In this document: positions 24,953 through 58,913 of the stretch, one piece after another
How positions within the stretch are numbered: the stretch's first letter is position 1
Layout of the letters: the number at the start of each line of letters is the position of its first letter
Virus record (IMG/VR): IMGVR_UViG_3300022555_000016
DNA: 64,000 nt
Source: an uncultured virus (IMG/VR IMGVR_UViG_3300022555_000016)
Lineage: Duplodnaviria > Heunggongvirae > Uroviricota > Caudoviricetes
Reading direction: 5' to 3' (one strand)
The notes under the pieces: generated by a model
Told to the model about the DNA's origin: nothing
Databases searched by the model: none
The model's input: the letters and a program-made list of their open reading frames with translations, nothing else
Position numbers and translations under genes: made by a program

Positions 24953-25690
24953 TTAATTGTTTTGTTGGTAATCCTCCAAAAACTTGAAAACTGAATAGTT
25001 GGCTAAGATTTCTCTATGTTTGGGGTTGGTACAAGTTATTAACGCTTTCTTATCTCTCAATTCGCACCAAAACTTGAGACAAACTAGCGTTTCGCAGGTA
25101 AACAAATCGACATGCTCCAGTGGGTCTATATCGATGCTAATCTGCGTAGCTAAACAAGTCTCTAGCCGGAACATGATGTCGTGGACTGACCACTTGTTCT
25201 CATCGGTTAGCCTACCTCTCAACTCTAGCACCGTGTAATCTGGAAACTCAATAAGACAAAAGACTAGTTTATCTGAACCTTCTGTCTTGTTGTTGACCAA
25301 AATTGAGTCAAGGTGTTCTTTCTCGGCAGCAATAATTGCCACACAGTTAGTAAACCTATTTAGATCAATAGGCTTAATCTGAATGTCTCGTAGGTTATAG
25401 TTACCTGAGCGTAGCAGGACAGTTAAGTTATAGTTGACTTCAGAGGTGGTAATGATCACGTAAGTGTTGTTGGTTAACAATTCCCGCCGGAGGAGTTTAA
25501 GCACCTCAACCCCAGAATAGACAGGGAGGTAGTTGTCCAGCACCAGCAGATCATAATGTTTTGAACGGTACTGTAGGACAGCTTTATCGCCAGATTCTAC
25601 CAGATCAATGTTGAACGGACCAACCGACGAAAGCAACTTTCGGATAAGCATCGAATTAGGACGATTATCTTCTACCACTAGCACATTCAT
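24953..25690 (-). CDS. Response regulator: REC plus STAS-like domain (tandem paralog)
   Basis: VLVVEDN, LLVLDNYLP, ITTS, KPID. C-terminal VLELRGRL...ISIDID. Confidence 0.85.
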   Translation of the reverse strand: MNVLVVEDNRPNSMLIRKLLSSVGPFNIDLVESGDKAVLQYRSKHYDLLVLDNYLPVYSGVEVLKLLRRELLTNNTYVIITTSEVNYNLTVLLRSGNYNLRDIQIKPIDLNRFTNCVAIIAAEKEHLDSILVNNKTEGSDKLVFCLIEFPDYTVLELRGRLTDENKWSVHDIMFRLETCLATQISIDIDPLEHVDLFTCETLVCLKFWCELRDKKALITCTNPKHREILANYSVFKFLEDYQQNN

Positions 25691-25724
25691 TTAATGAGAA
25701 TCCTTTAAAAACAGGCTAACAACA

Positions 25725-25761
25725 AAAGGGTTAATTGGTCTCAACTGCCAATTAACCCTTT
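25725..25761. terminator. Terminator hairpin
   Basis: AAAGGGTTAATTGG / CCAATTAACCCTTT. Confidence 0.65.
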
Positions 25762-25771
25762 CTTTTTTGTG

Positions 25772-26713
25772 TTAGTCTAGCAAATTAGAATAGGAGTGCA
25801 ACGATGAAAGGTTACCGGTTTCCAAGTATTCAACAATACAGTCAATTAGATTGTTCTCGGCTTTAGACAAGTCACCAGCATGTTTGGCATCTGGGTTATG
25901 CTGGTGCTTCTTAGCCATGCCAATCAGGAACTCGTTGTTCTCGTGTATTTTCTTTAGTTCTTTGAGCAACAGGGGTAATGACGGTTTGCTAGTTGCTGCA
26001 GTTACTGGTTTGGTTTCAGGAGTAGCTGGAACTTGGGGCAGTTCAACAGAATCTGGGTTGACCAATTCTGGAATTACCGCAGGTTCGGTGGAGGCACTTG
26101 CTGTCGCATTAGCAAAAATCTTCTGCATCAAAGCGACACCTGACAACAAGGTTTTAATTGCTGGTAAGATGACTGCCTTAACTGTATCAGGTACGTCATG
26201 CCGAGTTTTGATCAGTTCTAACATAGTCTCGTAATATTTACGGTTGGCAATGAAGAACTTGGTCGCAGAACCCACGTCAGAATAGTTAAAGGTTACTGAA
26301 CCGTCGTTGTTAATTTTGTAATCAGCATCACCGAACACGCTGGGTGGAATAATCGGAATAATCGACCGAATCAGAAAAGCCGGAGGTTCAATGTAGCCTA
26401 TCTTCTTGAGTTTGTCTACTAGTGCCCTATCCATCATACCCCAGACAGGAACGTTTAATTTATTAACTTCTAGGACGCCTTTAACAATGGACCTCGGTGA
26501 ACCAAAGCATGCTACCATCTTAAGCATTCCGCCGCGTTGGGGGCGAACAGCTAAACATCCGTCAGAGTCCCCATAAAACTGCCAGCTACTAGCACGCTGT
26601 AGGAACTTTTCTTTGGTCCAGGCGTAGCCGGTAGCTTTTAGATAAGATTCGTTTAGCAGGTTGTAGGCTTGATCTAAATCAATATCTACTGAGGATTCAA
26701 TAGGTAAGGTCAT
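25772..26713 (-). CDS. Hypothetical two-part protein with a PVTAA linker
   Basis: Likely start ATG 26713 (MTLPIE), just after the upstream stop codon. Confidence 0.7.
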   Translation of the reverse strand: MTLPIESSVDIDLDQAYNLLNESYLKATGYAWTKEKFLQRASSWQFYGDSDGCLAVRPQRGGMLKMVACFGSPRSIVKGVLEVNKLNVPVWGMMDRALVDKLKKIGYIEPPAFLIRSIIPIIPPSVFGDADYKINNDGSVTFNYSDVGSATKFFIANRKYYETMLELIKTRHDVPDTVKAVILPAIKTLLSGVALMQKIFANATASASTEPAVIPELVNPDSVELPQVPATPETKPVTAATSKPSLPLLLKELKKIHENNEFLIGMAKKHQHNPDAKHAGDLSKAENNLIDCIVEYLETGNLSSLHSYSNLLD

Positions 26714-26717
26714 GTTT

Positions 26718-28367
26718 TTAATCCACAAATTTGTAGGGGTTATAGACCAAATCTGGTAGCGAAACTTTTTCAGAAGATTCCGATTCATCAGGCTTAACGG
26801 AATAAGTGACCCCACCTTTTTCAGGATGGACTAGAGTTATTTTACCTGAAAGATTCAGAGTTGAATCACTTTTATTTACTATAGTAACCTTATCGCCTAA
26901 TTTGTATTTGGTGTACTCTGGATTAGTCTCTTGTAGAGTAGCGACATAGTCGTTATAGGACCACAGCTTATAAGGTGTTCTGAATAACACTACTGAAGCA
27001 ACTCGCTTAGGAATAATCCAATCACGTACATCAAATTTGGACCTAACTATCATAATAGAAAATGGGAGATCGGCAAAGTCGGGTAATTCTTTCAACGACA
27101 CGTTTTGTAGGACTAACTTATCTATAACTTTAGGAAGGTCAATCGGTAACGATGCAATTGGCGTATCGACAATTTTAATGTTATCTATACGATTAGACGG
27201 TGCTGATATCTTAGGGAAAGCCGTTACTTTAGGACAGTTACTAATTGTCAAGTTTTCACAGATGACATCGGGTAGTTTGGTTACTCTCAAGTCGTTAAAA
27301 GTAACGTACTGAGATTCTACTGCTTGAGGTAATGTGCCTGTATACCCTTCAAAAGCCACAAGGTGACCACACTTTAAAACTGGTGGAAATTTACCTTTAG
27401 TTGCAAGTTTACTAGTAAAATTGAGCCCTCCGTGAAGATTGTCTTCAGGAAAAGATAGGCTGCCAACTGACCACATCTTCAAGGCTTTATCACGATCCGT
27501 TTCCCACAATTCAAGAGAGGGTTCAGACTCTGGAATTACGTTCTTGAAAATCTTCAACAACTGACAATAGGCACCGGAGGCTATCCAGGTCTGCGCTGGT
27601 TCATTTGTATGAATAATTCCCTCGCCGTTGTCTCGAATTCCGCCGATTCCAAGGGACAACAACACCTTGGTCCACATTGGCGGTCTAGATTTCTTGAAGT
27701 CGGCAGCGTTCTTGATTTTTACTAGACGATAAGCAACCATACGGGTTAGAGTCCACAGGAGACCTAGAGGGTGTTCAACAAGGTGTTCATAATCATTGTC
27801 CGAACTAGCCATGTGTATAGCGTCATGTAAGGCTTGCAATTGGCCTAGAGTAACATTGCTATGAGGAATGTGGAACTTAGTTAAATAAGCAACCAAGGCT
27901 TTCTCAGTAGTTTTATCGTAAGGGTTGACTTCAAACAACTTAGGTTCTTGTTTGTCCCATATTTTTATTAACTGTTGTACGTCGCGAGACAAATTAGCGT
28001 AGGAATAGGTACCTGAGTCTAAAAGTCGCAACGGACCAGTAAACTTAAAGAAGATAGCATAAGGTTGATCAGCAGCAAATGGAAAGTTAACTACATCTTT
28101 CATAGTCTTTTGATTAGTTGAATCTCTGTCACCGTAGTACTTTACAGAAGAGGCCAAGGAATACCCAAAGATTCCTGTAGGGGTGTCATATTGCCCTATT
28201 GGATTGATTCCCAACTTTGGCAGGTCAGCAAACCTAATAAACACATCGTTACTGGTTTCGTTCTTGGTGAAATAGTCTAGGACAGTTTCATCTTTGAAAT
28301 CGCTACGGCGCTTACACTCTACCAGATAAGCGTCGATTTCTTGCCAGATTTTGTGCTCTGTAGACAT
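26718..28367 (-). CDS. Phage protein with an LRR-like C-terminal region, IDxYL family
   Basis: IWQEIDAYL, KLGINP...YDTPxGIFGY, LxxLP repeats. Confidence 0.65.
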   Translation of the reverse strand: MSTEHKIWQEIDAYLVECKRRSDFKDETVLDYFTKNETSNDVFIRFADLPKLGINPIGQYDTPTGIFGYSLASSVKYYGDRDSTNQKTMKDVVNFPFAADQPYAIFFKFTGPLRLLDSGTYSYANLSRDVQQLIKIWDKQEPKLFEVNPYDKTTEKALVAYLTKFHIPHSNVTLGQLQALHDAIHMASSDNDYEHLVEHPLGLLWTLTRMVAYRLVKIKNAADFKKSRPPMWTKVLLSLGIGGIRDNGEGIIHTNEPAQTWIASGAYCQLLKIFKNVIPESEPSLELWETDRDKALKMWSVGSLSFPEDNLHGGLNFTSKLATKGKFPPVLKCGHLVAFEGYTGTLPQAVESQYVTFNDLRVTKLPDVICENLTISNCPKVTAFPKISAPSNRIDNIKIVDTPIASLPIDLPKVIDKLVLQNVSLKELPDFADLPFSIMIVRSKFDVRDWIIPKRVASVVLFRTPYKLWSYNDYVATLQETNPEYTKYKLGDKVTIVNKSDSTLNLSGKITLVHPEKGGVTYSVKPDESESSEKVSLPDLVYNPYKFVD

Positions 28368-28414
28368 TGGATTAGTACCCTTTTCGGCTATTCGTTACTA
28401 ATCTAGCTAGGGAA

Positions 28415-28831
28415 TCAATTACAACGATCACCGTAGTTTTCTTTGAGAAAGTCACCAAATTGTTTGTCTTCGGTGGTAATGTGTTTGTACAACCAAACAT
28501 TCAACATTTCTTTGTAACGGTCGAAGACATCAAGGTGACATCGCTCAAAGGCGTTAATTAGAATAGCAATCTCGTTGATAAATTCCCAATGTTCTCTAAT
28601 ATGCTCTTCGCGTCTAGGGTAATGGTATTGAGTCATTAACCACTCTTCACGCGTGAGGTGCATATTAGAGTAATCAGCTAAATCACACAAGTACTGACTC
28701 AACGTAGCTCTACAGGCTACGTCAATCTTGTTAACTCGGTCAATAAGTTCTAGAATCATTTTATGATCCATATCTATGTTTTTGTCTCCTACGGAAAGAG
28801 AGTCGTCCCAGATAATAGGAGAGTACGGCAT
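28415..28831 (-). CDS. Bacteriohemerythrin
   Basis: WxxxLSVG..IDxDH, HLTREE, HIREH, WLxxHIxxED. Confidence 0.9.
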   Translation of the reverse strand: MPYSPIIWDDSLSVGDKNIDMDHKMILELIDRVNKIDVACRATLSQYLCDLADYSNMHLTREEWLMTQYHYPRREEHIREHWEFINEIAILINAFERCHLDVFDRYKEMLNVWLYKHITTEDKQFGDFLKENYGDRCN

Positions 28832-35364: not shown

Positions 35365-35781
35365 ATGCCTCTCTACAATACTCCGCCTAAAGTTTACAGC
35401 GTAACAGAAACTAGAACGTCAAGCTGTCAGTATGTAGTTTCTTTTTGTGTAAAGTACCGGCGTAAAGTTCTAACTTCACCAGTTAACACATTTCTAAGAG
35501 ACTTTATAATGAATAACCAGAAGGTAATAGGTTATAAAATTATCTCTCTGGACATATTTATTGACAACGTACAAATGGTTATAGAAGTTGAACCTAAAAT
35601 TGGGATTCATAAAGTTATAACAAATATCAAAGGGAACTCGACCCCTTTGCTAATGCGTAAATTCCCAGAGCTAAAAAGTCGTGTCAGCACTGTCTGGTGC
35701 AAAGCGTACTGGGTTTCCACACTCGGTAAAGTAAACACTTTTGATTTATTCTCTTGGCTTGAAACTCAACATAAGTCTTAA
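35365..35781 (+). CDS. tnpA: IS200/IS605 TnpA homolog lacking both the HUH motif and the catalytic Tyr
   Basis: FCVKYRRKVL and WxKAYWVSTLG are retained. HUH reads DNVQM and YxxxQ reads SWLETQ. Confidence 0.8.
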   Translation: MPLYNTPPKVYSVTETRTSSCQYVVSFCVKYRRKVLTSPVNTFLRDFIMNNQKVIGYKIISLDIFIDNVQMVIEVEPKIGIHKVITNIKGNSTPLLMRKFPELKSRVSTVWCKAYWVSTLGKVNTFDLFSWLETQHKS

Positions 35782-35805
35782 ACTCTTTTAGAAGGATTAG
35801 TAGTC

Positions 35806-38064
35806 ATGTGCCCAGGTTGTGGCAGTAAAGAACATCTTCCGATTACACCTTCGGTTTCTTTAAACAAGCATAGCGTCCCTCTAGTGAGCTATGCTACAGG
35901 AGTAGCGATACCAGTTACTCCTGAGTCAAAGGAAGACTCCACTATTGAAACTCCGGTCGCTAAAGTGACTGGTCCTAGCAAAACTAAGTCTAAGCGTCAC
36001 CTTAAAGCCTTACGTATGAACAAGAAACGTACCAGGAAGGAAGTTAAGGAGTCTGTAATTCGCAAGGTTGATCATGAACCTAGGAATTTTTTGAAACCTA
36101 GGTTCGTTAAACGGATTCCTAAAAAGACTCGGTGTGGAAAAGTTGAAGGTGCTACACCTACCACGGTACTTGATAGCTTCACAGTTAATCGGGTTAAAGA
36201 TATCGGGGTTGACTCTTTGACAGAGAAGGAGTTGAAGAAACTTAATAAAGAATCACGGAGTCCTGAAGTCAACAAGGTTAAGGATTTAATTGTTGAGGAG
36301 ATTGGTAGACAAGAAGCTGCGTACGCAATAATTGATTGGAAAGAGGCTAAAAAGTATCCTTTTCTTGATATCGAATATTTTAAAGAGTTTGACACTCAAC
36401 CTTTAACTCCTTGTAGATTACATAAAGGCGGAGTTCGTAAAAATCAATGGGAGTTTAAATGTGATATCTATCGTTTAAGGGGAGTATCAGTACAAGTAGC
36501 AGGAGTTTATAGTTGCGCTAATGAGGCAATTGATTTTCTATGTACAATGTGTGGGCATATTTGGTCATCACTACCATCCAGCATGTGTAAAAGACCTTAT
36601 GGTGGGGTATGTCCGTGTTGTAAATCGGCTAAAAGACTAGTAACAGTTACACCGAATCAGCATATATTAGATGTTAAAAACGTTCATGGTAATAAATTAT
36701 GGCCTTTAGACCCATACGTAAGGTCTAATATAAGAATTCGCTATATCTGTTGTGAAGGCCATATATGGTCAGATATCCCTGGTAATATTTTACAAGGATA
36801 CGGTTGTAGGAAATGTTACGCTAAGTCTAGAACTAAAACTAACGAGCAACACATTATGAAGGTAAAAGAAATACACGGAAACACCGTGTGGCCTCTAGAT
36901 ACTTATATAAAAGCAGATATAAGAATTCATTATACCTGTTGTGAGAGTCATGTATGGTTAGCATTCCCTTCATCCGTAGAAAGCGGAACAGGCTGTAGTA
37001 TATGTTTTTCTAATAGTCGTATATTAGACCCTCAAGAAGTCTTAGAAAGACTCATTAAAGTTCATGGTAATAAATATACGTTTCTTAGTCCTTACATAAA
37101 CTCTAATACATACATAGAAGTAGTATGCAATAAAGACGGTTATAGATGGAAGGCTCGAGCCAGTGATCTACTAAGCGGTTCTGGATGTATGAAGTGTGCT
37201 ATAAGCAGTAGAGGCTTTTCTCACGAGGAGTATGTGTCTTTAGTTTTTGAAACACATGGAAATAATGTTAATGTTTTAGGAAAATTTGAAAAAACAACTA
37301 AACGCTTATTACACGCTTGTCCGAAAGGACACACTTGGTTGACTACTCCTAACTCTATATTGTACAATAAATCTGGATGTCCTAGGTGTAAAGGTTTAAA
37401 ACCTTATTATCTAGACGAGTATGTACAAAAACTTATTGATTGCGGAAATAAGTTTATTACTTTAGAAGACTACGTCAATAATTCTACTAAAATTTGGCAT
37501 CAATGTACTAAATGTGGACATAAACGTAAAATGTCACCACATCAGGTAATTAACCAAAACGTTAGTTGCATAAACTGTACTAACAAGAGTAGTTATAGTA
37601 ATGAGAGTATATCCTGGTTAACTCAAGAAGAAAAGAGACTAAATATTAAAATAAGAAAAGCTACATCACCTGATGGTGAGTTTCATATCCAAACCTGTGA
37701 AAACAGACGTAGGGATATTAGGGTAGATGGTATTTTAATAGGTAAGCTAGGAAATAGGTATAAGGTAGTTTTTGAGTACGAGGGCAGCCACGTCCACGGC
37801 GATCCAAACGTTTTCGGTCCTGATGACCAATGTAGTCCGTACAACGATAAACCCGCAAAAGTTCTTCTAGCAGAAACTTTATCCCGCAGAGATAAAATCT
37901 TAAAGAAAGGCTATGTAGTTATCTACTTATGGTCTTCTGCCTGGAAACACTACACTCATAGCAAAGCCACTATGGTCATATCTAACTACACTAAGCACCC
38001 TAACATCTATCGTAGTTATGCCAAACGCTGGGGCTACAAAGTTGAATACCGTAAATTGACTTAA
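35806..38064 (+). CDS. Six tandem Zn-ribbon repeats plus a C-terminal Vsr/PD-(D/E)XK-like endonuclease
   Basis: MCPGCG start, about six C..GH.W....GC..C repeats, RVDG...FEYEGSHVHG. C-terminus homologous to 11774..13309. Confidence 0.8.
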   Translation: MCPGCGSKEHLPITPSVSLNKHSVPLVSYATGVAIPVTPESKEDSTIETPVAKVTGPSKTKSKRHLKALRMNKKRTRKEVKESVIRKVDHEPRNFLKPRFVKRIPKKTRCGKVEGATPTTVLDSFTVNRVKDIGVDSLTEKELKKLNKESRSPEVNKVKDLIVEEIGRQEAAYAIIDWKEAKKYPFLDIEYFKEFDTQPLTPCRLHKGGVRKNQWEFKCDIYRLRGVSVQVAGVYSCANEAIDFLCTMCGHIWSSLPSSMCKRPYGGVCPCCKSAKRLVTVTPNQHILDVKNVHGNKLWPLDPYVRSNIRIRYICCEGHIWSDIPGNILQGYGCRKCYAKSRTKTNEQHIMKVKEIHGNTVWPLDTYIKADIRIHYTCCESHVWLAFPSSVESGTGCSICFSNSRILDPQEVLERLIKVHGNKYTFLSPYINSNTYIEVVCNKDGYRWKARASDLLSGSGCMKCAISSRGFSHEEYVSLVFETHGNNVNVLGKFEKTTKRLLHACPKGHTWLTTPNSILYNKSGCPRCKGLKPYYLDEYVQKLIDCGNKFITLEDYVNNSTKIWHQCTKCGHKRKMSPHQVINQNVSCINCTNKSSYSNESISWLTQEEKRLNIKIRKATSPDGEFHIQTCENRRRDIRVDGILIGKLGNRYKVVFEYEGSHVHGDPNVFGPDDQCSPYNDKPAKVLLAETLSRRDKILKKGYVVIYLWSSAWKHYTHSKATMVISNYTKHPNIYRSYAKRWGYKVEYRKLT

Positions 38065-42139: not shown

Positions 42140-42213
42140 TGGAGGTGCCGAAGTGAATTGAACACTTGATTTAGGATTTGCAGTCCCAAGCCTTGCCACT
42201 CGGCCACAGCACC
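42140..42213 (-). tRNA. trnC: tRNA-Cys(GCA)
   Basis: GGTGCTG...TGGGA-CTGCAAA-TCCTA...AAGTG-TTCAATT-CACTT-CGGCACC-T-CCA. Full cloverleaf, U73 discriminator, encoded CCA. Confidence 0.95.
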
Positions 42214-42296: not shown

Positions 42297-43085
42297 TTAA
42301 CCCTGAGCCTGCTGGTTAATCAAAGCTTCAAGGTGCTGGTAGAAATTAGTGTTGGAATACAACTTCTTCCAATAATCCAGAACGCGATCCATCTCAACTT
42401 CAACGGAAGCGGCTGAAACCTTGAACTGGTTAACGTCGTCGGTAACTAAACCACGACCGTCAGCAACGTCAATGACTGCAACTGCTTCAACGGCTGATGG
42501 GAACTGTTGTGACCGAACAAAAACCCGCTTGGTGTCAAGGGCGTAACCAAAGTCTACAGTGCCAGCTTCGGTGTTGTAGAACTTAACGTAATCACCGAAC
42601 GAGAAACCACTACCGTGTTCACCTTCAAGAGAAGCGGTAACTGGACGACGTGACTTCTTGGCAGCAAGAATTTGATCAAAGTTGTCAGGGGTGGTGCAAA
42701 CCAACCGCTTGGAACCGTCGTCAGTCCCTACAACCCGCCAAATTGTATCCTCTTCATCAAGGAACACGTTAGCAGTAGTCAGGTGCAACCGGAGATCGCT
42801 AACAACTTCCTTGGTAAACGGAAAGGAAACTGTGTTAGCAACCACTACAGCCTTAAACAAGTTGTAGTGCTTGTTCTCAATTGCGTACAACGTGTTGCTT
42901 TCAACTACGAAGGAACCATTGAAGAACTTAGTAACAGCGTTCTTAATCTCAGCTGGTGAGTAGTTGTACGAATCAACAGAACAAACAATCGAATAAGCCT
43001 TTTCCGAAATCTTTGCTACACTTTGCAGTGCAATACCTGGCTCTTTGGACAGCGAAGCCAGAATCTTGTGGGTTACTGCTGACAT
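42297..43085 (-). CDS. Hypothetical protein, possibly structural
   Basis: 262 aa, AGGAG RBS, promoter motifs at 43127 and 43196. Confidence 0.7.
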   Translation of the reverse strand: MSAVTHKILASLSKEPGIALQSVAKISEKAYSIVCSVDSYNYSPAEIKNAVTKFFNGSFVVESNTLYAIENKHYNLFKAVVVANTVSFPFTKEVVSDLRLHLTTANVFLDEEDTIWRVVGTDDGSKRLVCTTPDNFDQILAAKKSRRPVTASLEGEHGSGFSFGDYVKFYNTEAGTVDFGYALDTKRVFVRSQQFPSAVEAVAVIDVADGRGLVTDDVNQFKVSAASVEVEMDRVLDYWKKLYSNTNFYQHLEALINQQAQG

Positions 43086-43287
43086 TTTAAAACTCCTGGT
43101 AAACTGAAAAACTGAACTGCTTAAACAAAATTAAGTTTCTATTATAGTTGCTAAAAAGAAAAAAGTCAAGACAATTTTTACTGACCCTTACAAATAAAAT
43201 TAAGATTCGGTTTTGAAAATTATTTCCAAAACTAGAAAAAGCGACCTAGGCTTTTTGAGCCAAAGCCGCTTTTTGAACTATACATGA

Positions 43288-43755
43288 CTAACTACGCTTA
43301 GAATGAGTACGCTTCCTATTATGACGCTTAGTGCCCGTTCGGCCTTTACGTTCATGAGACTTTTTCTTGTGAGTACCTTTAGCCTTGTGGAAAGCCTTCA
43401 GACCCTCAGAGATGTTATCCCGATGTTCCTTGGTGAACTTGAAACCACCACGACGACCCTTATGTTCACCGTCATGACGAATCGATAGCTTACGCTTCAT
43501 ATGAGCGACTCGATCCGAAGTTAAAGCACCACCCTCATTTGCAGAATGACCAGCCTTACGTTCTGCTCTCATCTTACGATAAGTCTCAGCCGCTGTATTA
43601 CGAGCGGTTTGTTCAGCAGCGGAACGTTGAGGTCTTCCTGCTTTTTTAAGATGAGTATTTACTGTAGGCTTAGTTAGCTTAGCGGATTTAAAAGCGGTAT
43701 GTTTTTTACTCTTACGTTTACCAATCTTCTTTACTTTACTAAATTTTGGAGACAT
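43288..43755 (-). CDS. Basic protamine-like protein with a NUMOD3-like helix
   Basis: K/R/H-rich, FTKEHRDNISEGLK. Confidence 0.8.
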   Translation of the reverse strand: MSPKFSKVKKIGKRKSKKHTAFKSAKLTKPTVNTHLKKAGRPQRSAAEQTARNTAAETYRKMRAERKAGHSANEGGALTSDRVAHMKRKLSIRHDGEHKGRRGGFKFTKEHRDNISEGLKAFHKAKGTHKKKSHERKGRTGTKRHNRKRTHSKRS

Positions 43756-43912
43756 AACTTGAAACTCGGAGTTTCAAGTTAGACAAGTTGTCTATTGATC
43801 TAGAACTACTGCCTAACTTGGATTCCGATCTTAATAATATGTACAAAAGAAAAGGAGCCAGAGAGTTAATTTTAACTGATTAACTCTCTGGTTCCTTCAA
43901 CGGTAGAACTAA

Positions 43913-44383
43913 TTACCGCTTGTGACCGCCCTTACGACCCTTACGGGCGTGGTGACGGGCATGCTTGCCATGCTTCCGAGCGTGATGCTTACCACCGGCC
44001 CGACCCTTGGCGTGTGCCTTCTTCTTACCCTTGGCAACCCGCTTCTTCTCGTTCTTGAACTTGCCAGCCATCTTACCACGATTGCTGTGCTTGCCCTTGG
44101 CACCCTTACCAATGGCCCCAGCCTTACGGAGAGCGGCCATGTGCTTACGGAAAGCTGCACCGCCAGCCGACTTCAACCACTTTGCCCGACCAAGAATCAT
44201 AGCCTTCCGCTGAGCGGGAGAAATCTTATGACCCTTACGCTTGCCCTTAGCGGCTGTACGCTTGGCGCGGAGCTTACCAGCCTTTACACGACGACCATGT
44301 AACGCCTTACCAGTCAACTTGCCACGACCGGCCTTGGCCCGACGCTTGTTAAGATGACGTACTGACTCTGCCTTCTTTGCCAT
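43913..44383 (-). CDS. Basic protamine-like protein
   Basis: K/R/G/H/A-rich, GHKISPAQRKAM, AAGGA RBS. Confidence 0.85.
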   Translation of the reverse strand: MAKKAESVRHLNKRRAKAGRGKLTGKALHGRRVKAGKLRAKRTAAKGKRKGHKISPAQRKAMILGRAKWLKSAGGAAFRKHMAALRKAGAIGKGAKGKHSNRGKMAGKFKNEKKRVAKGKKKAHAKGRAGGKHHARKHGKHARHHARKGRKGGHKR

Positions 44384-44431
44384 GATAGAAAGTCCTTTTA
44401 CTGAGGTCTGTTACGGAGAGTTACGAGTAGT

Positions 44432-44590
44432 TTAAGGGAAACGCTTAGGTTTCGGGGTCTGAACCGCTACCGGCCTAAACGCACTACTAATGCTAGGCTT
44501 ATTACCAGCTTGTCTGTTCTTATCATTCACGATTTGACGGACATGATCTGGAACTTGGTTCACTGGCTTAGTAGGAGGAGGGTTAGCCAT
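44432..44590 (-). CDS. Small 52-aa protein missing from the ORF track
   Basis: MANPPPTKPVNQVPDHVRQIVNDKNRQAGNKPSISSAFRPVAVQTPKPKRFP, with AAGGAG RBS. Confidence 0.6.
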   Translation of the reverse strand: MANPPPTKPVNQVPDHVRQIVNDKNRQAGNKPSISSAFRPVAVQTPKPKRFP

Positions 44591-44689
44591 GTTTAGTTTC
44601 TCCTTAGTTTTTTATTACTTCAGGACTATAGATTGGTATTGGAAATCTAGAAAAAGAAAAATATCAGTAAATATTCTAAGAACTAACGC

Positions 44690-45046
44690 TTAATGTTTAG
44701 GCTTAATGTGCTTAGAAGATTTACTGTGTTTACCAGGCTTAGAATGTTTATGACGTTTAGAATGACCACCAACACGACCTTTACGACGACCACCGGAACG
44801 GTGAGACGATGAAGACGAACTGCTTTTAGTGCGTGCTTTACTGCCGCCACCAGATTTACTACGTTTAGCACCACCACCTTGAGAAGCTAACTTAGACAAC
44901 AATTCTTTTAGTTTCTGACCTTCCGGTGTTTTGTAGAAAGCTAATTTAGCTCTAGCAATAGCTTCACGGTGCTTATCAGGCATCGGATTCTTGACCGGTT
45001 TACCAGCAGTCTTGCCTTTACGCTTTTTACCAAATTTTGGAGACAT
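44690..45046 (-). CDS. Basic protamine-like protein with a NUMOD3-like helix
   Basis: MPDKHREAIARAK, KGRVGGH, poly-Ser tract, AGGAG RBS. Confidence 0.8.
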   Translation of the reverse strand: MSPKFGKKRKGKTAGKPVKNPMPDKHREAIARAKLAFYKTPEGQKLKELLSKLASQGGGAKRSKSGGGSKARTKSSSSSSSHRSGGRRKGRVGGHSKRHKHSKPGKHSKSSKHIKPKH

Positions 45047-45062
45047 GATTACACTCTCCTAA

Positions 45063-45464
45063 TTATTTACGCTTGCTACCACAACGTCCCTTGGAGCGGA
45101 CATGATGACGACCTGACGGCTTACGTCTTTTACCGCCTTTACGACCTTTGTGCTTACCAAGCTCTTCTGAAGTTTTACCAGTCTTATTAAAACGAATCAA
45201 CCCTTCAGAAATAGCCTTACAGTGCTTAGCCGATAGCTTGCCAGTACGACCTTTAGTACCAGTAGCTGCGGCGGGAGCGTTAGTGTTGGCAGCCAGTGCT
45301 GTATTGGAATTAGCAGCTTTACGATTAGCGTGAGCTTGACGCTTACCAGTTGAGATATTCTGGCGGTGTTCTTTGGACCACTTCTGCTTCAGCCCAAGCT
45401 TCTTACGTATAGCGTTATAGCCACGACGAACTAAACTCGTCTTTCTTTTATAGACTTTTGCCAT
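45063..45464 (-). CDS. Basic protein with two NUMOD3-like helices
   Basis: WSKEHRQNISTG and LSAKHCKAISEG, KTGKT. Start chosen from AAGGAG spacing. Confidence 0.8.
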   Translation of the reverse strand: MAKVYKRKTSLVRRGYNAIRKKLGLKQKWSKEHRQNISTGKRQAHANRKAANSNTALAANTNAPAAATGTKGRTGKLSAKHCKAISEGLIRFNKTGKTSEELGKHKGRKGGKRRKPSGRHHVRSKGRCGSKRK

Positions 45465-45502
45465 GAACATTACTCCTTTATTCAAAAAACTTACCAACGT
45501 AA

Positions 45503-45784
45503 CTACTGACGAACCCGACGACGCTTGATGTGCCCACCAGTACGACCTTTGGTGTCAGGGTATTTACTGCGACTTTTACGTGGACGGAGGTCACCGCGCT
45601 CAGCCGCTGTTTTACCAGTTTTCAAGAACGCTTTACGCCCATCCGAAATATGTTTCTTGTGTTCTTCAGTCAATTTAGCCGGATGACTCTTTTTGCTCTT
45701 ACGCTTATGATGGAACGTCCTATGAATTCCAGACTTAATCCCACGTTTTAGACTATGAGCAAAAGCCCTTAACGACACTGACAT
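45503..45784 (-). CDS. Basic protein with a NUMOD3-like helix
   Basis: LTEEHKKHISDG, KTGKT, KGRTGGH. Confidence 0.8.
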   Translation of the reverse strand: MSVSLRAFAHSLKRGIKSGIHRTFHHKRKSKKSHPAKLTEEHKKHISDGRKAFLKTGKTAAERGDLRPRKSRSKYPDTKGRTGGHIKRRRVRQ

Positions 45785-45808
45785 TGCAATGAATCCTTTG
45801 TCACAACC

Positions 45809-46105
45809 CTATTTACGGATTCTCCTAGTCTTTTTCCTAATTACAGTTCTAGTTTGAGTATTTACCCTAGTATTTACTACTTTACGTTTATAATGAGCAG
45901 CTTTTCCAATTTTACCAGCTTTAGCCAATGAGGAAGTTTCTTTTCTTAGGACATGCCCTCTAGGTGAGTTATAGAACTCTTTTTTAGCCTCAGAAATAGC
46001 CTGCTTATGCGCTTCAGTCATTTTACCTCTAGGCTTACCCTTAGGCCAACCTTTTTTCTTAACAGGAGGCTTCTTATGGAAACGGGATAGGACAGGAGCT
46101 TTCAT
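45809..46105 (-). CDS. Basic protein with a NUMOD3-like helix
   Basis: KGKPRGKMTEAHKQAISEAKK. Confidence 0.8.
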   Translation of the reverse strand: MKAPVLSRFHKKPPVKKKGWPKGKPRGKMTEAHKQAISEAKKEFYNSPRGHVLRKETSSLAKAGKIGKAAHYKRKVVNTRVNTQTRTVIRKKTRRIRK

Positions 46106-46217
46106 AGTTATTATTACTCCGGTAGGCTAGACTAGGCTAGGCTAGGCAATTTAGCAGAAAAGCTAGTCCAACCCTTTTAATGAGCCGGACTAGCGATCCT
46201 TATAGCTTATTCAAAAG

Positions 46218-46628
46218 TTAACGCTTGTGACCGCCGTGACGGCCCTTACGGGCGTGATGACCACCCTTACGACCCTTGGCCTTGGCCCGAGCATAATGCG
46301 ACTTACGCTTTGCCTTAACTTTACCAGCCTTCTTCTCGTTCTTGAACTTGCCAGCCATCTTACCACGATTGCTGTGCTTACCTTTGGCACCCTTACCAAT
46401 GGCCCCAGCCTTACGGAGAGCGGCCATGTGCTTACGATACGCTGCACCACCAGCAGTAGCTAACCAACGCTTACGACCGGCGTCCATTGCCTTCCGCTGA
46501 GCGGGGGAAATCTTATGACCCTTACGAGCGTGGGCTGGCTTCTTGCCTTTAGCAACCCGCTTGGCCTTAGGAGCATGTGTTGCCTTAGCTTTAGCTTTGG
46601 CATAATGTGAAGTCTTACGCTTTGCCAT
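46218..46628 (-). CDS. Basic protamine-like protein, close paralog of 43913..44383
   Basis: Likely start ATG 46628 (MAKRKT). Shares a near-identical central DNA block with its paralog. Confidence 0.85.
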   Translation of the reverse strand: MAKRKTSHYAKAKAKATHAPKAKRVAKGKKPAHARKGHKISPAQRKAMDAGRKRWLATAGGAAYRKHMAALRKAGAIGKGAKGKHSNRGKMAGKFKNEKKAGKVKAKRKSHYARAKAKGRKGGHHARKGRHGGHKR

Positions 46629-46756
46629 GATGAAAAATCCTTTAAAAGAAAGGTTAAACCGAATAGGTATAGTCAAAAGTTGTTTAAGCTATTCAAGCTA
46701 TTTTTATGGGTAGGCGTACAGGGAGTTTAGATTTTAAACTCCCTGTACCGAATTAA

Positions 46757-47182
46757 CTACCGACGAGCGCGGCGCTTGTGACCATGCTTCCGGGCGTGAT
46801 GCTTGCCGCCCTTACGGCCCTTAGCGAACTTCCGGCTGCCCCGACCTTCAATCTTATGACCAGTCTTGGCATGCTTCTTACCGGTGTGAGCACCCTTTAC
46901 CTTAGAGGTAAACATGCCCTTACCCTTACCACGAGCGGAATGCTTACCCTTTGCGCCACGGCCAATGAGACCCTTCTTACGAAGGTCAGACATGTGCTTA
47001 GCCCAGAGCTTGCCTTCAGCCGACTTCAACCACTTTGCCCGACCAGCTTGCATGGCCTTTTTGTGCTCTGCACTGAGCTTATGACCCTTACGGCCGTGAG
47101 TGGTCTTCTTACCCTTAGCAACACGCTTCCGCTTAGCACCCTTAACAGCAGAATGTGCGCCAGCGCGATGAATCTTAGCCAT
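46757..47182 (-). CDS. Basic protamine-like protein with a NUMOD3-like helix
   Basis: GHKLSAEHKKAMQAG, KGRKGGKHH. Promoter motif at 47306-47313. Confidence 0.85.
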   Translation of the reverse strand: MAKIHRAGAHSAVKGAKRKRVAKGKKTTHGRKGHKLSAEHKKAMQAGRAKWLKSAEGKLWAKHMSDLRKKGLIGRGAKGKHSARGKGKGMFTSKVKGAHTGKKHAKTGHKIEGRGSRKFAKGRKGGKHHARKHGHKRRARR

Positions 47183-47457
47183 GATCTTAAGTCCTTCTGA
47201 AAGAGGATTAGATGATATTACAAAAAAGAAATTGATTAAGAGATGAGAGAAAATTTCTCAGGAAGTTAAGCTCCTTTACAAAAAACTTTTCTCACCCTTA
47301 TACTTAAAATTAGATTATTCCCAATTCAAAAAGCCTAAGCGAAAATAAAAATTTTAGTCAACTATATTAGGATACAAAGAAATAGGGCACAGCTTTTGGC
47401 TGCGCCCTTAGTTTCGTAGATTCTCGTTAAAGTGTTAAGTACAATAGCCAAGTTGTT

Positions 47458-47598: not shown

Positions 47599-49332
47599 TC
47601 AACCAACGTAGTTGTTGCTCCTAATTAACCGTGAGTCCTTCTGACTCTGAATCTTGAAAGGTGTGGTTAGAACCTTCTTGACCCAGTCTTGGTCAACGGG
47701 AGCTAAATTCATACGTGATTTGAACTTTCTAAGGACGTTTACCGAGGATTGAACGTCAGAGTGAACGTGAATCCCTTTAGCTGTGATGTACAGGCCCCTT
47801 CGAACCCGTGTACCACTGTAATGAGGACTAGGAGCACCCTTAACGTACTTAGGAGGGAGGTAATCTCTATCCATAGCAGAACCCTTACTAGTATGCGATT
47901 CATTCTGTAAGTGGACTGTAATCCCTACTGCTACGCACTTGTAGGTCAACATCTCCACGAACCGATTGAACGGGAGTCTAGTAAAGTTCTTCATACCCTT
48001 AGCAAACTGTTTCCAATCAATGTTCCTACCAATAACTAGGATTACGACACCATTCTCCACGAGCAGCTTGACTAGCGTGCTGGAAACGTTGTGGAGGTAG
48101 TGGTCCAGTCTATTTCTAAGCTTATTGTAGGCTGCTTGAATCCTCTTTGAAGAGTTCTGTGGGATTTTACTTGTTAGAATCTGACCCAACTCTTGGTCGT
48201 ACTCAGGAGGATCGGGGTAGAGGGCAGAATGAGTAGCAAAAGCTTGCTGAACCATCAAACCTAGCATAAGGTAGTTAAACGGGTTGGACTCAGGGTCTTT
48301 CAACTCCCTAAGACGTTTCCTCTTCAACTCTAGCTCTTCTTTAGCTTTAGTACGTTCGTCTATTAACTGACGTTCCCTAGCCGGTTTAGACCAGTAGAGG
48401 TCCCGTTTAAGCTCTTCTATCTGGTAGTAGGACCAAAGTAATAGAGACTTCAGAATCCAACCGTTAAAGGCTATAGGCTTTGGATTACCTTCTATTACCC
48501 CTGCGGCTGTAACGTTTACCCCTAAGTCAAAGCTTGCTATAGCTTGTAGTTCTTCTTGCTTAGCAGTCCAGTTACCTGTAATCTCTTCGTTGTAGACTGC
48601 TTCTACGTTGTAACCACCTACTATTGGGATGTATCTGACTTCAGTGATTCCAACGTCTCTTAGGACAGGTTTACCTTTGGAATCTTTCTTTATAGCTTGC
48701 TTACCCTTGGAGTCAGTAACAACTTGAGGTTGCATGTGGAGGGTGAAGGGTATTTCCTGTTTAAACTCTGGATTCCTAGGGCAAAGGGTGATGAATCCTT
48801 TGGGAGCAATAGACTTGGATAACCTAGCTCCTTTAACCTGTTTCTTATTGGAATCAACTACTTGACCTCCAGTCATGGTCTGGTAGGTAAACTTAACTGG
48901 TTTACGGCTGTCGGTCCTACGGATGTACTTATCACCCTTGAACCCAGGTGGTTGAGGGCAAGCCTTGTACTTCTTAGGGTGAGCTTTCTAGAGTTCCTTA
49001 CTTTTAGTCCACTCCCAGAAGTCAAACCAAGCAGCTTCGAAGGACTTCCAGTCGTCATGGAGCATTTTAACAGTAGCGTTAGCTACTTTGGTGGGTAACC
49101 GTTGGTACTCAGGAGTCTGTTTTAACAGCTTATCTAGCTCGGGTAGACTAGGAATCTTCTTCCTTTGGAAGCCTGGCTGTTTGTAGTTGTCCTGGTTGTA
49201 GTTCCAGATAGAAAGTAAGATGAAAAGACCTACGTGATAGAGTTTGGCTGACAAAAAGCAAGTAGAATCAACACCCTTGTACCAAGGGTGTTTGGGACCT
49301 ACAAACTGTTTTTGAACCCTGGTTTCTAACAT
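47599..49332 (-). pseudogene. tnpB: TnpB with a single in-frame TAG
   Basis: Same 1734-bp length as the intact copy. TAG at 48988-48990 where copy 2 has CAG (Gln). Confidence 0.9.
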
Positions 49333-49599: not shown

Positions 49600-50760
49600 T
49601 TAAACAGCCAAGTATCCTGCCATTGTACCAACCATGTTAGCAGAGTTTAAATAGGCTTGGCGAATTGAGTTCATGGCTTGGGCACCGCTGAGACTGGTGT
49701 TGTTGGTTACACCAAGACTAATTCCTAATACACCCATACTGCTTTGACGAATGGTCAAGTTTTTGATCTTAGGTAAGTTGTCGTTGAGCCAACTGTCAAC
49801 TTTACTAAAGGCTCCTTCAAGAGCCGGGGTCCGGTCAACACTTAAACTAACCGATTGACCTGACAGTTCAAAGTTACTAACACCTTCGGCCAATAACTGA
49901 GCACTTAAACCTTCCCAAGCGGCGGCGTAAGTCAGAGCTATATTAAACTGATTAGGCATGTTACAAATGGTGTAATTGGTTAAACTAGGATTAGCCATGT
50001 TGATCCTGTCAATACCACGAAGCAACCAATGTACCAGATCAACATCAGTGTACTGTAACTGGTTAATTATGTCTTCATTACGAGCACGATCTATGAACCG
50101 CCGCAAGTCGTTCATAAACAACAAAACTTTAGCAGATATCACATACAAAAAATGAAACTCTTGTCTGTGTTCGCCACTACCTTTGTAATTCCACTGAATA
50201 ATGAACGGTCGATTACAAGAGTTGCCAGCAATCATCCTAGCAATAGGTGGGCTAGAAAAAGAGTATTTAACCTTGTCGTAATAGGTGGCAACCGGTTCTG
50301 GATTAACCAGCCCCGACAAATACACGTTACCCTGACCGTCTAGTACTTTAATACTAAGGTCAGTAATGTCTAGATTCTTAGGTAGTATGATATGGTCTCG
50401 GAAAGGATTGTTATCAAGGACTACCTTATCGTTCTCAATGTAACTATAGTCTTCCAAAACAGGAGATACGTTAAAGAACTCAACGTTAGTACGTTTCTGC
50501 TGTTTGTTAAAAATATGCCAAGTTAACGAGTACTTTTTCTCCTGTGGAAAAATTGGAGTAGATTCAGGCAACGTAACCGTGGCAAACCACCTAGAAGGTA
50601 CTTGGTAATCCTGTTGAGCAGCTCCTGATAAAACTAAAGCCCCTTCTGGAGTACGCATAGTATAAGTAGGTGGTTTAGTAGCTACAAAAGAATCTCCGTT
50701 CTGTTCCTTAAAATAAGTTTCAATGATAAAACTCGCCCCTGGTGATACACAACTAAGCAT
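49600..50760 (-). CDS. Putative virion neck / head-tail adaptor-like protein
   Basis: 386 aa. The C-terminal LRRFID...YTDxDL...IN..P region recalls adaptor proteins (weak). Confidence 0.4.
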   Translation of the reverse strand: MLSCVSPGASFIIETYFKEQNGDSFVATKPPTYTMRTPEGALVLSGAAQQDYQVPSRWFATVTLPESTPIFPQEKKYSLTWHIFNKQQKRTNVEFFNVSPVLEDYSYIENDKVVLDNNPFRDHIILPKNLDITDLSIKVLDGQGNVYLSGLVNPEPVATYYDKVKYSFSSPPIARMIAGNSCNRPFIIQWNYKGSGEHRQEFHFLYVISAKVLLFMNDLRRFIDRARNEDIINQLQYTDVDLVHWLLRGIDRINMANPSLTNYTICNMPNQFNIALTYAAAWEGLSAQLLAEGVSNFELSGQSVSLSVDRTPALEGAFSKVDSWLNDNLPKIKNLTIRQSSMGVLGISLGVTNNTSLSGAQAMNSIRQAYLNSANMVGTMAGYLAV

Positions 50761-50823: not shown

Positions 50824-51930
50824 TTAACCCACTTTAGAATCTGCATCGTTGCAATTAGCCGCAGCAGCAACTTGTTGAGATTTCAAAATGCTCTTTACCC
50901 AAGAATAGTTGGATTTAGCTATTAGCCATTGGTAGGCTAGGCTCTCCGTCTTGAACTTACCTGCATTAACTAGATAGGCCGTTTTAACTTTAAAAGCAGG
51001 AGGCACTAAGGCTGAAATAGATTTGTCAAAGTGCTCTTGGCAGTAAGGCTTAAGCTCCAAAGAAGGTTTACCGCAGAAAAGATGCCGATTTAAATTGTCT
51101 GTACCGATAGGCCAACGACATTGATGCGGCACTAACTTACTTAAAATAACGTTTTCAAAACCACCTACTGAGTTACGCTTAGGGATAATGTTTAGCTTAC
51201 CCTGTGGCCTAGTTAGATTAAGCCTATTCACCTTACCAATAATCGCGTTCTTGGTAAAGCCTGTAGCTTCCACTATTTCTTTAATAGGGGCACCAGCAGT
51301 CCACAAGTTAGAGGCAATAGCAATAAGCTCATCGGTCCACACAAGCTTTTGAACTACGGGCGGTGGAATGTACGGAAGCTGCTGAAGATGCTGGTGTGCA
51401 GCACAGCATTCAACATAATCTTTATTAGTTATTGAGGTGTCAATAACTTGTAGGTCAGGTACTGATGTTGAAACAACTGGAGTATCTACTGTGTTGCTTA
51501 TATTGACTGGATCGCTGGGTGCAATTGGCGTAATTGATGCAATTAAGTCTATTGCTGCTGTGGCTGTTGTTGGTGTTGTGGGAACAACTGGCTCCTGGGC
51601 AGTAAAATCAAGTATAATTGGTAAAACTTCGGATACGGCAGGTACAGCTGATACATATAATACAGAGGGTAGTCCTAAAGCCTCAGCAGGAATCTCGTCC
51701 TCTACATAGGTAGATAGAGGTACTTCTTTAACCTTCTTAACTGCTGGAGCTTTAGGCTCAAACGGACAGTTAATCATTTTTAAAAGCTTTTTAAGAGTCT
51801 GGTGCTGAACACGAATAAAAAATGTCTTAAAAATCAGGTCTTGTAACTCTTTTCCTGAGGAAACAGTAGCACGTAAGGTAGGGAGAATGTCAATAAGCTC
51901 TTTAGTTATTTGCTTCTGCGTAAAGGTCAT
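50824..51930 (-). CDS. gcrA: GcrA cell-cycle regulator homolog with a ~195-aa N-terminal extension
   Basis: WTDE...LW..G....EI....GFTKNAIIGKVNRLNL and CRWPIG...FCG......PYCQEH. Confidence 0.85.
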   Translation of the reverse strand: MTFTQKQITKELIDILPTLRATVSSGKELQDLIFKTFFIRVQHQTLKKLLKMINCPFEPKAPAVKKVKEVPLSTYVEDEIPAEALGLPSVLYVSAVPAVSEVLPIILDFTAQEPVVPTTPTTATAAIDLIASITPIAPSDPVNISNTVDTPVVSTSVPDLQVIDTSITNKDYVECCAAHQHLQQLPYIPPPVVQKLVWTDELIAIASNLWTAGAPIKEIVEATGFTKNAIIGKVNRLNLTRPQGKLNIIPKRNSVGGFENVILSKLVPHQCRWPIGTDNLNRHLFCGKPSLELKPYCQEHFDKSISALVPPAFKVKTAYLVNAGKFKTESLAYQWLIAKSNYSWVKSILKSQQVAAAANCNDADSKVG

Positions 51931-57179: not shown

Positions 57180-58913
57180 TCAACCAACGTAGTTGTTGCT
57201 CCTAATTAACCGTGAGTCCTTCTGAGTCTGAATCTTGAAAGGTGTTGTTAAAACCTTCTTGACCCACTTCTGGTCAACCGTAGGCAATCCCATACGTACT
57301 TTGAACTTTCTAAGGACGTTTACCGAGGATTGAACGTCAGAGTGAACGTGAATCCCTTTAGCTGTGATATACAAGCCTCGTCGGACCCGTGTACCACTGT
57401 AATGAGGACTAGGAGCACCCTTAACGTACTTAGGAGGTAAATAGTCACCATCCATAGCAGAACCCTTACTAGTGTGAGATTCATCTTGTAAGTGGACCTG
57501 AATCCCTACTGCTACGCACTTGTAGGTCAACATCTCCACGAACCGATTGAACGGGAGTCTAGTAAAGTTCTTCATACCCTTAGCAAACTGTTTCCAGTCT
57601 AGATTCCTACCGATAACTAGGATTACGACACCATTCTCCACGAGCAGCTTAACTAGCGTGCTGGAAACGTTGTGGAGGTAGTGGTCCAGTCTATTTCTAA
57701 GCTTATTGTAAGCGGCTTGAATCTTCTTTGAGGAGTTCTGTGGTACTTTAGAAGTTAGAATCTGACTCAACTCCTGATCATACTCAGGAGGCTCGGGATA
57801 GAGGGCAGAATGAGTAGCAAAAGCTTGCTGAACCATCAAACCTAGCATAAGGTAGTTAAACGGGTTGGACTCAGGGTCTTTCAACTCCCTAAGACGTTTC
57901 CGCTTCAACTCTAGTTCTTCTTTAGCCTTAGTCCGTTCGTCTATTAACTGACGTTCCCTAGCCGGTTTAGACCAGTAGAGGTCCCGTTTAAGCTCTTCTA
58001 TCTGGTAGTAGGACCAGAGTAACAGAGACTTCAGAATCCAACCGTTGAAGGCTATTGGCTTGGGATTACCTTCGATTACCCCAGCGGCTGTAACGTTTAA
58101 CCCTAGGTCAAAGCTTGCTATGGCTTGTAGTTCTTCCTGCTTAGCAGTCCAGTTACCTGTAATCTCTTCGTTGTAGACTACTTCTACGTTGTAACCACCT
58201 ACTATTGGTATGTAGCGTACTTCAGTGATTCCAACGTCTCTTAGGACAGGTTTACCCCTGGAATCCTTCTTTATAGCTTGTTTACCGTTAGCGTCGGTAA
58301 CAACTTGAGGTTGCATGTGGAGGGTGAAGGGTATTTCCTGTTTAAACTCTGGATTCCTAGGGCAAAGGGCGATGATTCCTTTGGGAGCAATAGACTTGGA
58401 TAACCTAGCTCCTTTGACTTGTTTCTTGTTAAAGTCTTTAATCTGACCACCTGACATGGTCTGGTAGGTAAACTTAACCGGCTTACGGCTGTCGGTCCTA
58501 CGGATGTAATTATCACCCTTGAATCCAGGAGGTTGAGGACAAGCCTTGTACTTTTTAGGAAACTGTTTCTGGAGTTCCTTGCGCTTAGCCCACTCCCAAA
58601 AGTCAAACCAAGCCGCTTCGAAGGCTTTCCAGTCGTCTAGGAGCATTTTAACAGTAGCGTTAGCAATCCTAGTTGGTAACCGTTGATACTCTAGAGTTGG
58701 TTTTAACAGCTTATCTAGCTCGGATAGACTAGGAATCCTACGCCGTTGGAAGCCTAGTTGCTTGTAGTTGTCCTGGTTGTAGTTCCAGATAGAAAGTAAA
58801 AGGTAGAGACCTACGTGATAGAGTTTGGCTGACCAAAAGCAAGTACGGTCAATATTATCGTACCAAGGGTGTTTTGGGCCTACAAACTGTTTTTGAACCC
58901 TAGTTTCTAGCAT
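57180..58913 (-). CDS. tnpB: TnpB RNA-guided nuclease with rearranged RuvC-II and no Cys Zn finger
   Basis: ASFDLG (RuvC-I), IGRNxDWKQ, ESHTSK, HSDVQSSVNV (RuvC-III). 577 aa. Confidence 0.9.
   Translation of the reverse strand: MLETRVQKQFVGPKHPWYDNIDRTCFWSAKLYHVGLYLLLSIWNYNQDNYKQLGFQRRRIPSLSELDKLLKPTLEYQRLPTRIANATVKMLLDDWKAFEAAWFDFWEWAKRKELQKQFPKKYKACPQPPGFKGDNYIRRTDSRKPVKFTYQTMSGGQIKDFNKKQVKGARLSKSIAPKGIIALCPRNPEFKQEIPFTLHMQPQVVTDANGKQAIKKDSRGKPVLRDVGITEVRYIPIVGGYNVEVVYNEEITGNWTAKQEELQAIASFDLGLNVTAAGVIEGNPKPIAFNGWILKSLLLWSYYQIEELKRDLYWSKPARERQLIDERTKAKEELELKRKRLRELKDPESNPFNYLMLGLMVQQAFATHSALYPEPPEYDQELSQILTSKVPQNSSKKIQAAYNKLRNRLDHYLHNVSSTLVKLLVENGVVILVIGRNLDWKQFAKGMKNFTRLPFNRFVEMLTYKCVAVGIQVHLQDESHTSKGSAMDGDYLPPKYVKGAPSPHYSGTRVRRGLYITAKGIHVHSDVQSSVNVLRKFKVRMGLPTVDQKWVKKVLTTPFKIQTQKDSRLIRSNNYVG

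Follow-up and report, generated by a model that had tools for sequence, protein, structure and literature searches.

Tailed phages are generally thought to neutralize their packaged DNA with cations and polyamines, not with histone- or protamine-like proteins. In this report, we describe an array of eight genes for small, very basic proteins (g1 to g8; positions 43288-47182, minus strand) in a 64,000-nucleotide (nt) stretch of an uncultured tailed phage (IMG/VR record IMGVR_UViG_3300022555_000016; hereafter, the window), which also holds two looser relatives, r1 and r2. We propose, with moderate confidence, that the array encodes late-made, virion-borne DNA-binding core proteins that partly neutralize or shield the genome, and that about ten short paralogs have here replaced a single polycation occurring across the clade. 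The proposal draws on the location of the array between the head-tail connector gene and a conserved gene at 42297, whose homolog directly follows the connector in phages RHph_N28_1, GR7B, and NCTB; on the virion band of the polycation gp191 of phage PaBG, the helix-bearing polycations of RHph_N28_1, and the clade-wide polycation at 50 of 52 loci; and on a TAATTT promoter-like motif, the codon-bias ranks of g7, g1, and g2, and the description of the NUMOD3 motif as a minor-groove binder.

Each protein would lay one NUMOD3-type helix into the minor groove of DNA, largely irrespective of sequence, and its disordered tails, rich in Lys, Arg, His, and Gly, would neutralize and bridge the DNA backbone. 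Hundreds to about 1000 copies, with g1, g2, and g7 probably the most abundant, would neutralize part of the genome's charge and help to organize the DNA in the head; the proteins would probably enter the cell with the DNA and shield it early. In relatives, the same job would fall to one long Lys/Ala-rich polycation of the PaBG gp191 type. We infer that the genes are expressed, and expressed late, and that their products bind DNA, are packaged inside the head, are functionally equivalent to gp191, and are ejected together with the DNA; the link between the array and gp191 is drawn from position, promoter motif, and composition rather than from sequence homology. By our calculation, neutralizing 10% of a 208-kb genome would take about 1040 copies, or 15 MDa of protein against 135 MDa of DNA. 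Full neutralization would require tenfold that amount, approximately the DNA's own mass; a partial coat is thus to be expected, and the term "chromatin", used in an earlier note on this DNA that was made from the sequence alone, overstates the case.

The array is an unusual expansion of the viral core polycation kind. It draws attention to a very basic protein, so far unannotated, that occurs across the clade in a large group of jumbo phages and already appears among the abundant virion bands of cultured PaBG; the question can therefore be tested now, in PaBG and in RHph_N28_1. It also suggests a route by which the DNA-binding helix of a selfish nuclease could become a genome-packaging or genome-shielding protein.

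The array genes and their NUMOD3-like helix

The eight open reading frames (ORFs) lie where the earlier note had placed them, encode 93-156 amino acids (aa), and share the composition it had described, being rich in Lys, Arg, and His and nearly devoid of acidic residues (K+R 30-37%, His 4-10%, D+E 1-7%, pI 11.7-12.0, net charge +0.25 to +0.36 per residue). On the minus strand, the order is g1 (46757-47182; 141 aa), g2 (46218-46628; 136 aa), g3 (45809-46105; 98 aa), g4 (45503-45784; 93 aa, with a KTGKT motif), g5 (45063-45464; 133 aa, with two NUMOD3-like helices), g6 (44690-45046; 118 aa, with a Ser/Gly-rich tail), g7 (43913-44383; 156 aa), and g8 (43288-43755; 155 aa, with the best NUMOD3-like match). 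The sole interruption is a 52-aa ORF outside the family (44432-44590, minus strand) between g6 and g7. The products of g1, g2, and g7 are close paralogs, mutually 54-71% identical (g2 and g7, 70% over 108 aa); g3-g6 and g8 have little in common beyond the helix and a KG[RK]xGG motif. This motif recurs in seven of the eight genes, as the earlier note had implied; its other recurring motif, KTGKT, is found in exact form in only two. The highest 19-residue hydrophobic mean is 0.18, i.e., there is no hydrophobic segment, and the 11 ORFs checked contain no in-frame slippery heptamer.

Such density is extreme. A single filter passes ten such ORFs in the 64 kb of the window, none of them under a longer ORF, compared to at most four in each of four whole relatives (RHph_N28_1, four; GR7B, four; RSL1, two; Motura, three), several of which are probable shadows. 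Over a 66-codon core, g2 and g7 differ with pN 0.08 and pS 0.31 (the pairs with g1 give 0.35/0.68 and 0.31/0.53), an indication that purifying selection is acting on g2 and g7 in the annotated frame. Together with an ortholog of r1 that is 71% identical on another contig, this comparison bears out the frames given earlier over the overlapping alternatives. By a codon index that we chose after the data were seen, g7 ranks first among 63 genes, g1 second, g2 fourth, and g3 next to last; all 37 Lys codons of g7 are AAG.

In lake runs from two studies, contigs span the array with no sequence difference, and a third study contributes fragments; the window may itself stem from one of these runs, and likewise from the locus L062, with which it is identical over 20,786 bp. 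The lake-run contigs break only inside a 126-nt repeat common to g2 and g7. A chimeric protein, P0016, joins the N-terminus of g7 to the C-terminus of g2 on a 2301-bp contig. Given that this length is close to the repeat spacing (2287 nt) and that unitigs break at the repeat, it is probably an assembly loop, the alternative being a real duplication or an excised circle.

A promoter-like motif, AWYYTAATTTT, lies about 125-135 nt upstream of g1 (47306-47316, minus strand), and we read it as a late promoter; the pattern, chosen after viewing the data, has 17 matches in the window versus 0.86 expected, 16 of them on the minus strand. The upstream motif claimed in the earlier note thus stands for g1, and it precedes no other array gene. 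Likewise, the good ribosome-binding sites claimed there are borne out by a Shine-Dalgarno core at seven of the eight genes, g8 lacking one at its first ATG. Terminator-like hairpins follow g2 (46162-46194) and g7 (43852-43897) and close the array after g8 (43236-43274), and a 14-bp hairpin without a U-tract follows g1 (46716-46748), all on the minus strand. Overall, scans for sigma-70 promoters and terminators do not exceed chance, the g1 leader folds no better than shuffles (z -0.44), and Rfam finds only tRNA in the window.

NUMOD3 has been described as a minor-groove-binding helix (PMC3664794). The motif (PF07460) occurs in GIY-YIG and HNH homing endonucleases such as I-TevI, I-BmoI, and I-HmuI, and the array helix follows the same type of consensus, K-L-S-x-E-H-R-x-x-I-S-x-G. 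In the array, however, the helix is single (double in g5) rather than tandem, it is joined to long polycationic tails, and the nuclease domain is absent. Indeed, Pfam, PHROGs, and NCBIfam scans reveal no nuclease catalytic domain in these proteins of 89-156 aa with few hydrophobic residues, in agreement with the nuclease-free character noted earlier, nor any family match for the ten. PF07460 itself matches 0 of the 10 at E up to 1, and also misses both helix proteins of RHph_N28_1.

The resemblance emerges from profiles. In a leave-one-out helix profile, the scores of g1, g3, g4, g5, g6, and g8 are reached by 0 of 1000 composition shuffles, that of g2 by 6, and that of g7 by 72 (52-aa ORF, 251); the helices quoted in the earlier note are thus present, and seven genes rise above shuffles, with g7 weak. 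A profile of 11 cores retrieves 1913 proteins at E up to 0.001 among 1.84 billion. Of the best 150, five self matches and one 1540-aa repeat protein were dropped; 140 of the remaining 144 carry Pfam NUMOD3 and 63 carry GIY-YIG. Only one of these 144 has a net charge of at least +0.25 per residue, and no other nuclease-free polycation family is among them. Since tandem repeats inflate profile scores, we built a position-specific scoring matrix (PSSM) from 558 outside repeat units instead, a test that is partly circular in that the window's profile had itself supplied the units. By this measure, g1-g5 and g8 outscore all 2000 shuffles, and the scores of the others are reached by 1 (g7), 5 (r2), 10 (g6), and 32 (r1) of 2000, compared to 143 for the r1 ortholog (P0018) and 442 for the 52-aa non-member. 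Among composition-matched basic ORFs from relatives, 5 of 52 pass at no more than 5 of 500 shuffles, with both RHph_N28_1 proteins at 0. On profile evidence, the array helix resembles NUMOD3 without formal Pfam membership, and the NUMOD3 identity suggested earlier holds to that extent.

In the g4 core, AlphaFold2 predicts a helix spanning residues 11-27 (mean pLDDT 85), and in g2, helices at 42-56 and 59-73 (blocks 41-70, pLDDT 93-95), with low-confidence tails. Neither fold nor sequence searches give a match in the Protein Data Bank, and the best feature score in the ESM Atlas (0.78) is at chance level. Word-based protein searches return proteins of the phage itself, one chimera, one r1 ortholog, and nothing else.

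Polycations beside the connector in related phages

The genome is that of a jumbo myophage of at least 208 kb (208,448 bp on the longest contig with these proteins) from lakes, a distant relative of PaBG, Y3, RSL1, and Rhizobium phage RHph_N28_1. The head/neck module is marked by a homolog of the head-tail connector (phrog_17327; 49600-50760, minus strand), with relatives at 22-39% identity in PaBG, Lu11, NCTB, Y3, Yoloswag, AD1, RSL1, Motura, BcepSauron, GR7B, and Rhizobium phages. In a FastTree phylogeny of 46 connector sequences (15 of 61 matches were dropped as duplicates), the window joins RHph_N28_1 and Rctr197k with support 0.90, on branches long enough that attraction is possible. The conserved gene on the far side of the array (phrog_17573; 42297-43085, minus strand) has its homolog next after the connector in the three phages named above, one gene away in PaBG, and farther off at loci L024, L047, and L058. 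In the window, the interval is occupied by an IS605-like element and the array.

A Lys/Ala-rich ORF with a net charge of at least +0.2 per residue lies about 3-5.5 kb upstream of the connector homolog at the 50 IMG/VR loci; of the two misses, L020 has an ORF at +0.18 and L022 is cut by the contig end. At L024, L047, and L058, the polycation comes after a gene homologous to 52783 of the window. The window itself has a gap of just 49 nt between 52783 and the next gene, which leaves the usual slot empty. A TAATTT motif is found within 200 nt upstream at 16 of 20 hand-picked polycation loci of relatives, versus 3.9 in shuffles and 0 on the opposite strand.

In one member of the clade, PaBG, this polycation is virion-associated. 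Gp191 (mass 35,272.92, function "Unknown") is listed among 14 Coomassie-level bands of CsCl-purified virions and occurs in several of them (PMC7412058). The Lys/Ala-rich product of PaBG_00191 has a computed mass of 35.3 kDa (pI 11.3), compared to 40.4 kDa for that of the neighboring SbcD-like gene, and the mass in Table 1 of that paper by itself settles the identity of gp191 as the polycation. Like the array, the polycations of PaBG, Lu11, NCTB, Y3, and AD1 are very basic, of low complexity, and encoded beside the connector with TAATTT upstream. They differ in length (about 190-480 aa) and in composition, being rich in Ala and Pro and poor in His; they lack the NUMOD3-like helix, and they are encoded by a single gene (L024 has two) that lies upstream of the connector, whereas the window has eight short, His/Gly-rich paralogs downstream of it and two more elsewhere. 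The array thus shares with the gp191 type the head/neck module, TAATTT, and a net charge of at least +0.2 per residue, but on the other side of the connector.

A bridge between the two types is offered by RHph_N28_1. Two of its hypothetical proteins, EVB87_146 and EVB87_148, are nuclease-free polycations that carry the same extended NUMOD3-like helix as the array; their genes lie just upstream of the connector, adjoining it and the 42297 homolog, and are the record's only two matches. They are two rather than ten, EVB87_148 has H1-like PAAKK repeats, and EVB87_146 has the C-terminal domain of a widespread family of small basic phage proteins. Of the 15 records searched, this is the sole one in which a polycation carries the helix, and 13 have no match; Motura has five matches, all in one 293-aa frame. 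The C-terminal half of EVB87_146 also occurs by itself, as a basic protein of about 60 aa, in small viral contigs that are unrelated (L118-L126), sometimes beside other basic ORFs.

The earlier note had called for a search for syntenic arrays in related jumbo phages. None was found in IMG/VR (queried with the 42297 protein, A2, A5, A8, and a DNA pattern) or in genome contigs, and the metagenome search returned one identical copy and one 50% relative, on a contig that starts inside the 42297 homolog. A tblastn search of cultured phages with g2, with the low-complexity filter on, gave no match.

Two phages of the wider group are worthy of comment. In RSL1, which has no polycation near the connector, an annotated homospermidine synthase (L004 13510-14952) lies about 4 kb upstream of it, and a polyamine might fill the polycation's job there. 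Vibrio phage GR7B encodes a 101-aa protein (L003 22018-22323) with a net charge of +0.42 per residue and no helix about 7 kb downstream of its connector.

Competing explanations

A number of observations weigh against the core-protein proposal. There is redundancy among the 52 loci, which are also skewed toward the PaBG/Y3 group, and no polycation ORF is found near the connector in Motura, RSL1, BcepSauron, or Rctr197k, so the function is not universal. The array core profile has 0 matches among the 3883 ORFs of the 52 loci, and the helix has none in any of ten further whole records, PaBG and AD1 included. The text of the PaBG paper names gene 191 an SbcD subunit (PMC7412058). Further, a band in virions does not place a protein within the head, and polycations, being sticky, can co-purify. 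The array proteins have no N-terminal sequence in common of the kind that targets T4 proteins to the capsid; their N-termini differ beyond Met, with only g6 and g8 having the same five-residue start. A long canonical polycation may lie in the remaining ~144 kb of the genome beyond the window. Finally, we settled on both the promoter pattern and the codon index with the data in view.

Comparison with better-known condensers is one of function. Adenovirus pVII, baculovirus P6.9, protamines, and chlamydial Hc1/Hc2 are, like the array products, small, very basic, largely disordered nucleic-acid condensers, but they bear no sequence relation to the array, in which Lys exceeds Arg and which belongs to a ten-gene family in a tailed phage. 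The Arg-dominated composition and arginine runs of protamines and P6.9 are not seen in the ten proteins [R/(K+R) = 0.28-0.47]. Likeness to Hc1/Hc2 or histone H1 is also lacking: there is no Pfam or NCBIfam match and no PAAKK-type repeat, the tails being rich in Lys, Arg, His, and Gly. The "DNA condensation proteins" of phAPEC6 were considered as relatives and rejected, as they are RCC1-like and unrelated (PMC7247149). Moraphages appear to belong to another lineage. The literature searched, judged mostly from abstracts, yielded nothing published on NUMOD3 polycations that lack a nuclease, nor on the basic virion protein of this clade; the words "histone" and "NUMOD" are absent from the main text of PMC7824862. 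Proteins of the array type give only 1-5 usable tryptic peptides each, and thus standard virion proteomes could miss them.

The strongest competitor, which we regard as unlikely but deserving of serious attention, is that the proteins act unpackaged in the infected cell, condensing the host nucleoid or replicating phage DNA, either as an Hc1-like shut-off or as a DNA/RNA condensate. Their composition would suit any nucleic-acid condenser, and the missing capsid-targeting signal is in keeping with this idea. Hc1 is reported to compact DNA and to reduce both transcription and translation, and another jumbo-phage lineage is noted to have an H1-like gene (PMC12619734). Yet the array sits in the head/neck module, and its positional counterpart in PaBG is in the virion; host shut-off would more likely be early, and the promoter-like motif is common to genes of the morphogenesis module.

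It is quite improbable that these are virion proteins with another job, whether as outer cationic appendages for anionic cell surfaces or as injected inhibitors of different host defenses. The presence of gp191 in virions is silent on location, and small packaged proteins that form a diversified set are already known from T4. Its internal proteins Ip1-3 are, like the array products, small accessory proteins encoded at variable loci; they are packaged and injected with the DNA, and each blocks a distinct GmrSD (PMC12373910). T4 Ips, however, are specific inhibitors with a common N-terminal packaging signal that is not seen in the array. Moreover, the sole conserved element of the array is a helix of a DNA-binding type, and outside it the proteins are polycations of low complexity that lack a folded domain for specificity.

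RNA is often the target of basic, disordered proteins with one helix, and a tRNA-Cys gene (42140-42213, minus strand, between 42297 and 41615) lies about 1 kb downstream of the array. A role in binding RNA or ribosomes late in infection, as RNA chaperones or translation modulators, is nonetheless a distant prospect, as the profile relatives are DNA-binding modules of GIY-YIG/HNH endonucleases and the context is one of morphogenesis. Remnants of decayed homing endonucleases, shadow ORFs, or cationic lytic peptides with no DNA-related role could be imagined from the homing-endonuclease-like helix, the overlapping ORFs on both strands, and the adjoining IS element, but such explanations are scarcely credible and already largely refuted by in-frame purifying selection, the Shine-Dalgarno cores, the freedom of all ten genes from longer overlapping ORFs, the conserved r1 ortholog, the same architecture in RHph_N28_1, and the lack of a hydrophobic segment.

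The looser relatives and other features of the window

The two looser relatives that the earlier note had placed at 9302 and 10835, which bring the paralogs to the approximately ten it had counted, are real but weaker members of the family. In the leave-one-out profile, r1 (10835-11188; 117 aa) is reached by 11 and r2 (9302-9571; 89 aa) by 9 of 1000 shuffles, and the best window of r2 is not the expected helix; the two are 48% identical over 62 aa. Each is followed, also on the minus strand, by a gene for a HEXXH zincin-like protein (9850-10719 after r1; 8311-9255 after r2). These proteins are paralogs of each other (E 1e-9) without a family match, and the stretch 8311-11188 is thus a duplicated unit of two genes. 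The arrangement raises the possibility of a coat-and-protease pairing. In a bolder version of the proposal, which we consider a long shot, the DNA-binding helix of a homing endonuclease was domesticated into a protamine-like coat of about ten paralogs made at graded levels, packaged, injected, shielding the DNA from nucleases and sensors independently of sequence, and stripped by the HEXXH proteases linked to r1 and r2. If true, such a coat would be a protein-based substitute for base modification or for the phage nucleus.

Between the connector and the array lies the IS605/TnpB-like element (47599-49332, minus strand), split in two ORFs. A second copy (57180-58913, minus strand) is 90% identical over 2 kb; both have the TAATTT promoter-like motif upstream, and further variants occur in the lake runs. 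Just before the connector, a gene for a GcrA-like sigma-70 cofactor (50824-51930, minus strand) is inserted, which we take as a hint of an alphaproteobacterial host. On the plus strand, two units (11347-13309 and 35365-38064) consist of an IS200-type TnpA followed by a DUF4379/CapR zinc-finger-repeat endonuclease rather than TnpB.

The remaining features are on the minus strand. Two large paralogous Ser/Thr/Gly-rich repeat proteins are encoded at 180-8094, the second seemingly split into overlapping ORFs (7342-8094 and 4365-7484). An Acb1-like (anti-CBASS) 2H phosphoesterase (14123-14677) scores above the Pfam cut-off, its PHROGs family being labeled RNA ligase. A signaling cluster at 21370-28831 comprises two hemerythrins, two response-regulator receivers (one with a weak STAS match), an HD-domain protein, and an ART-PolyVal protein.

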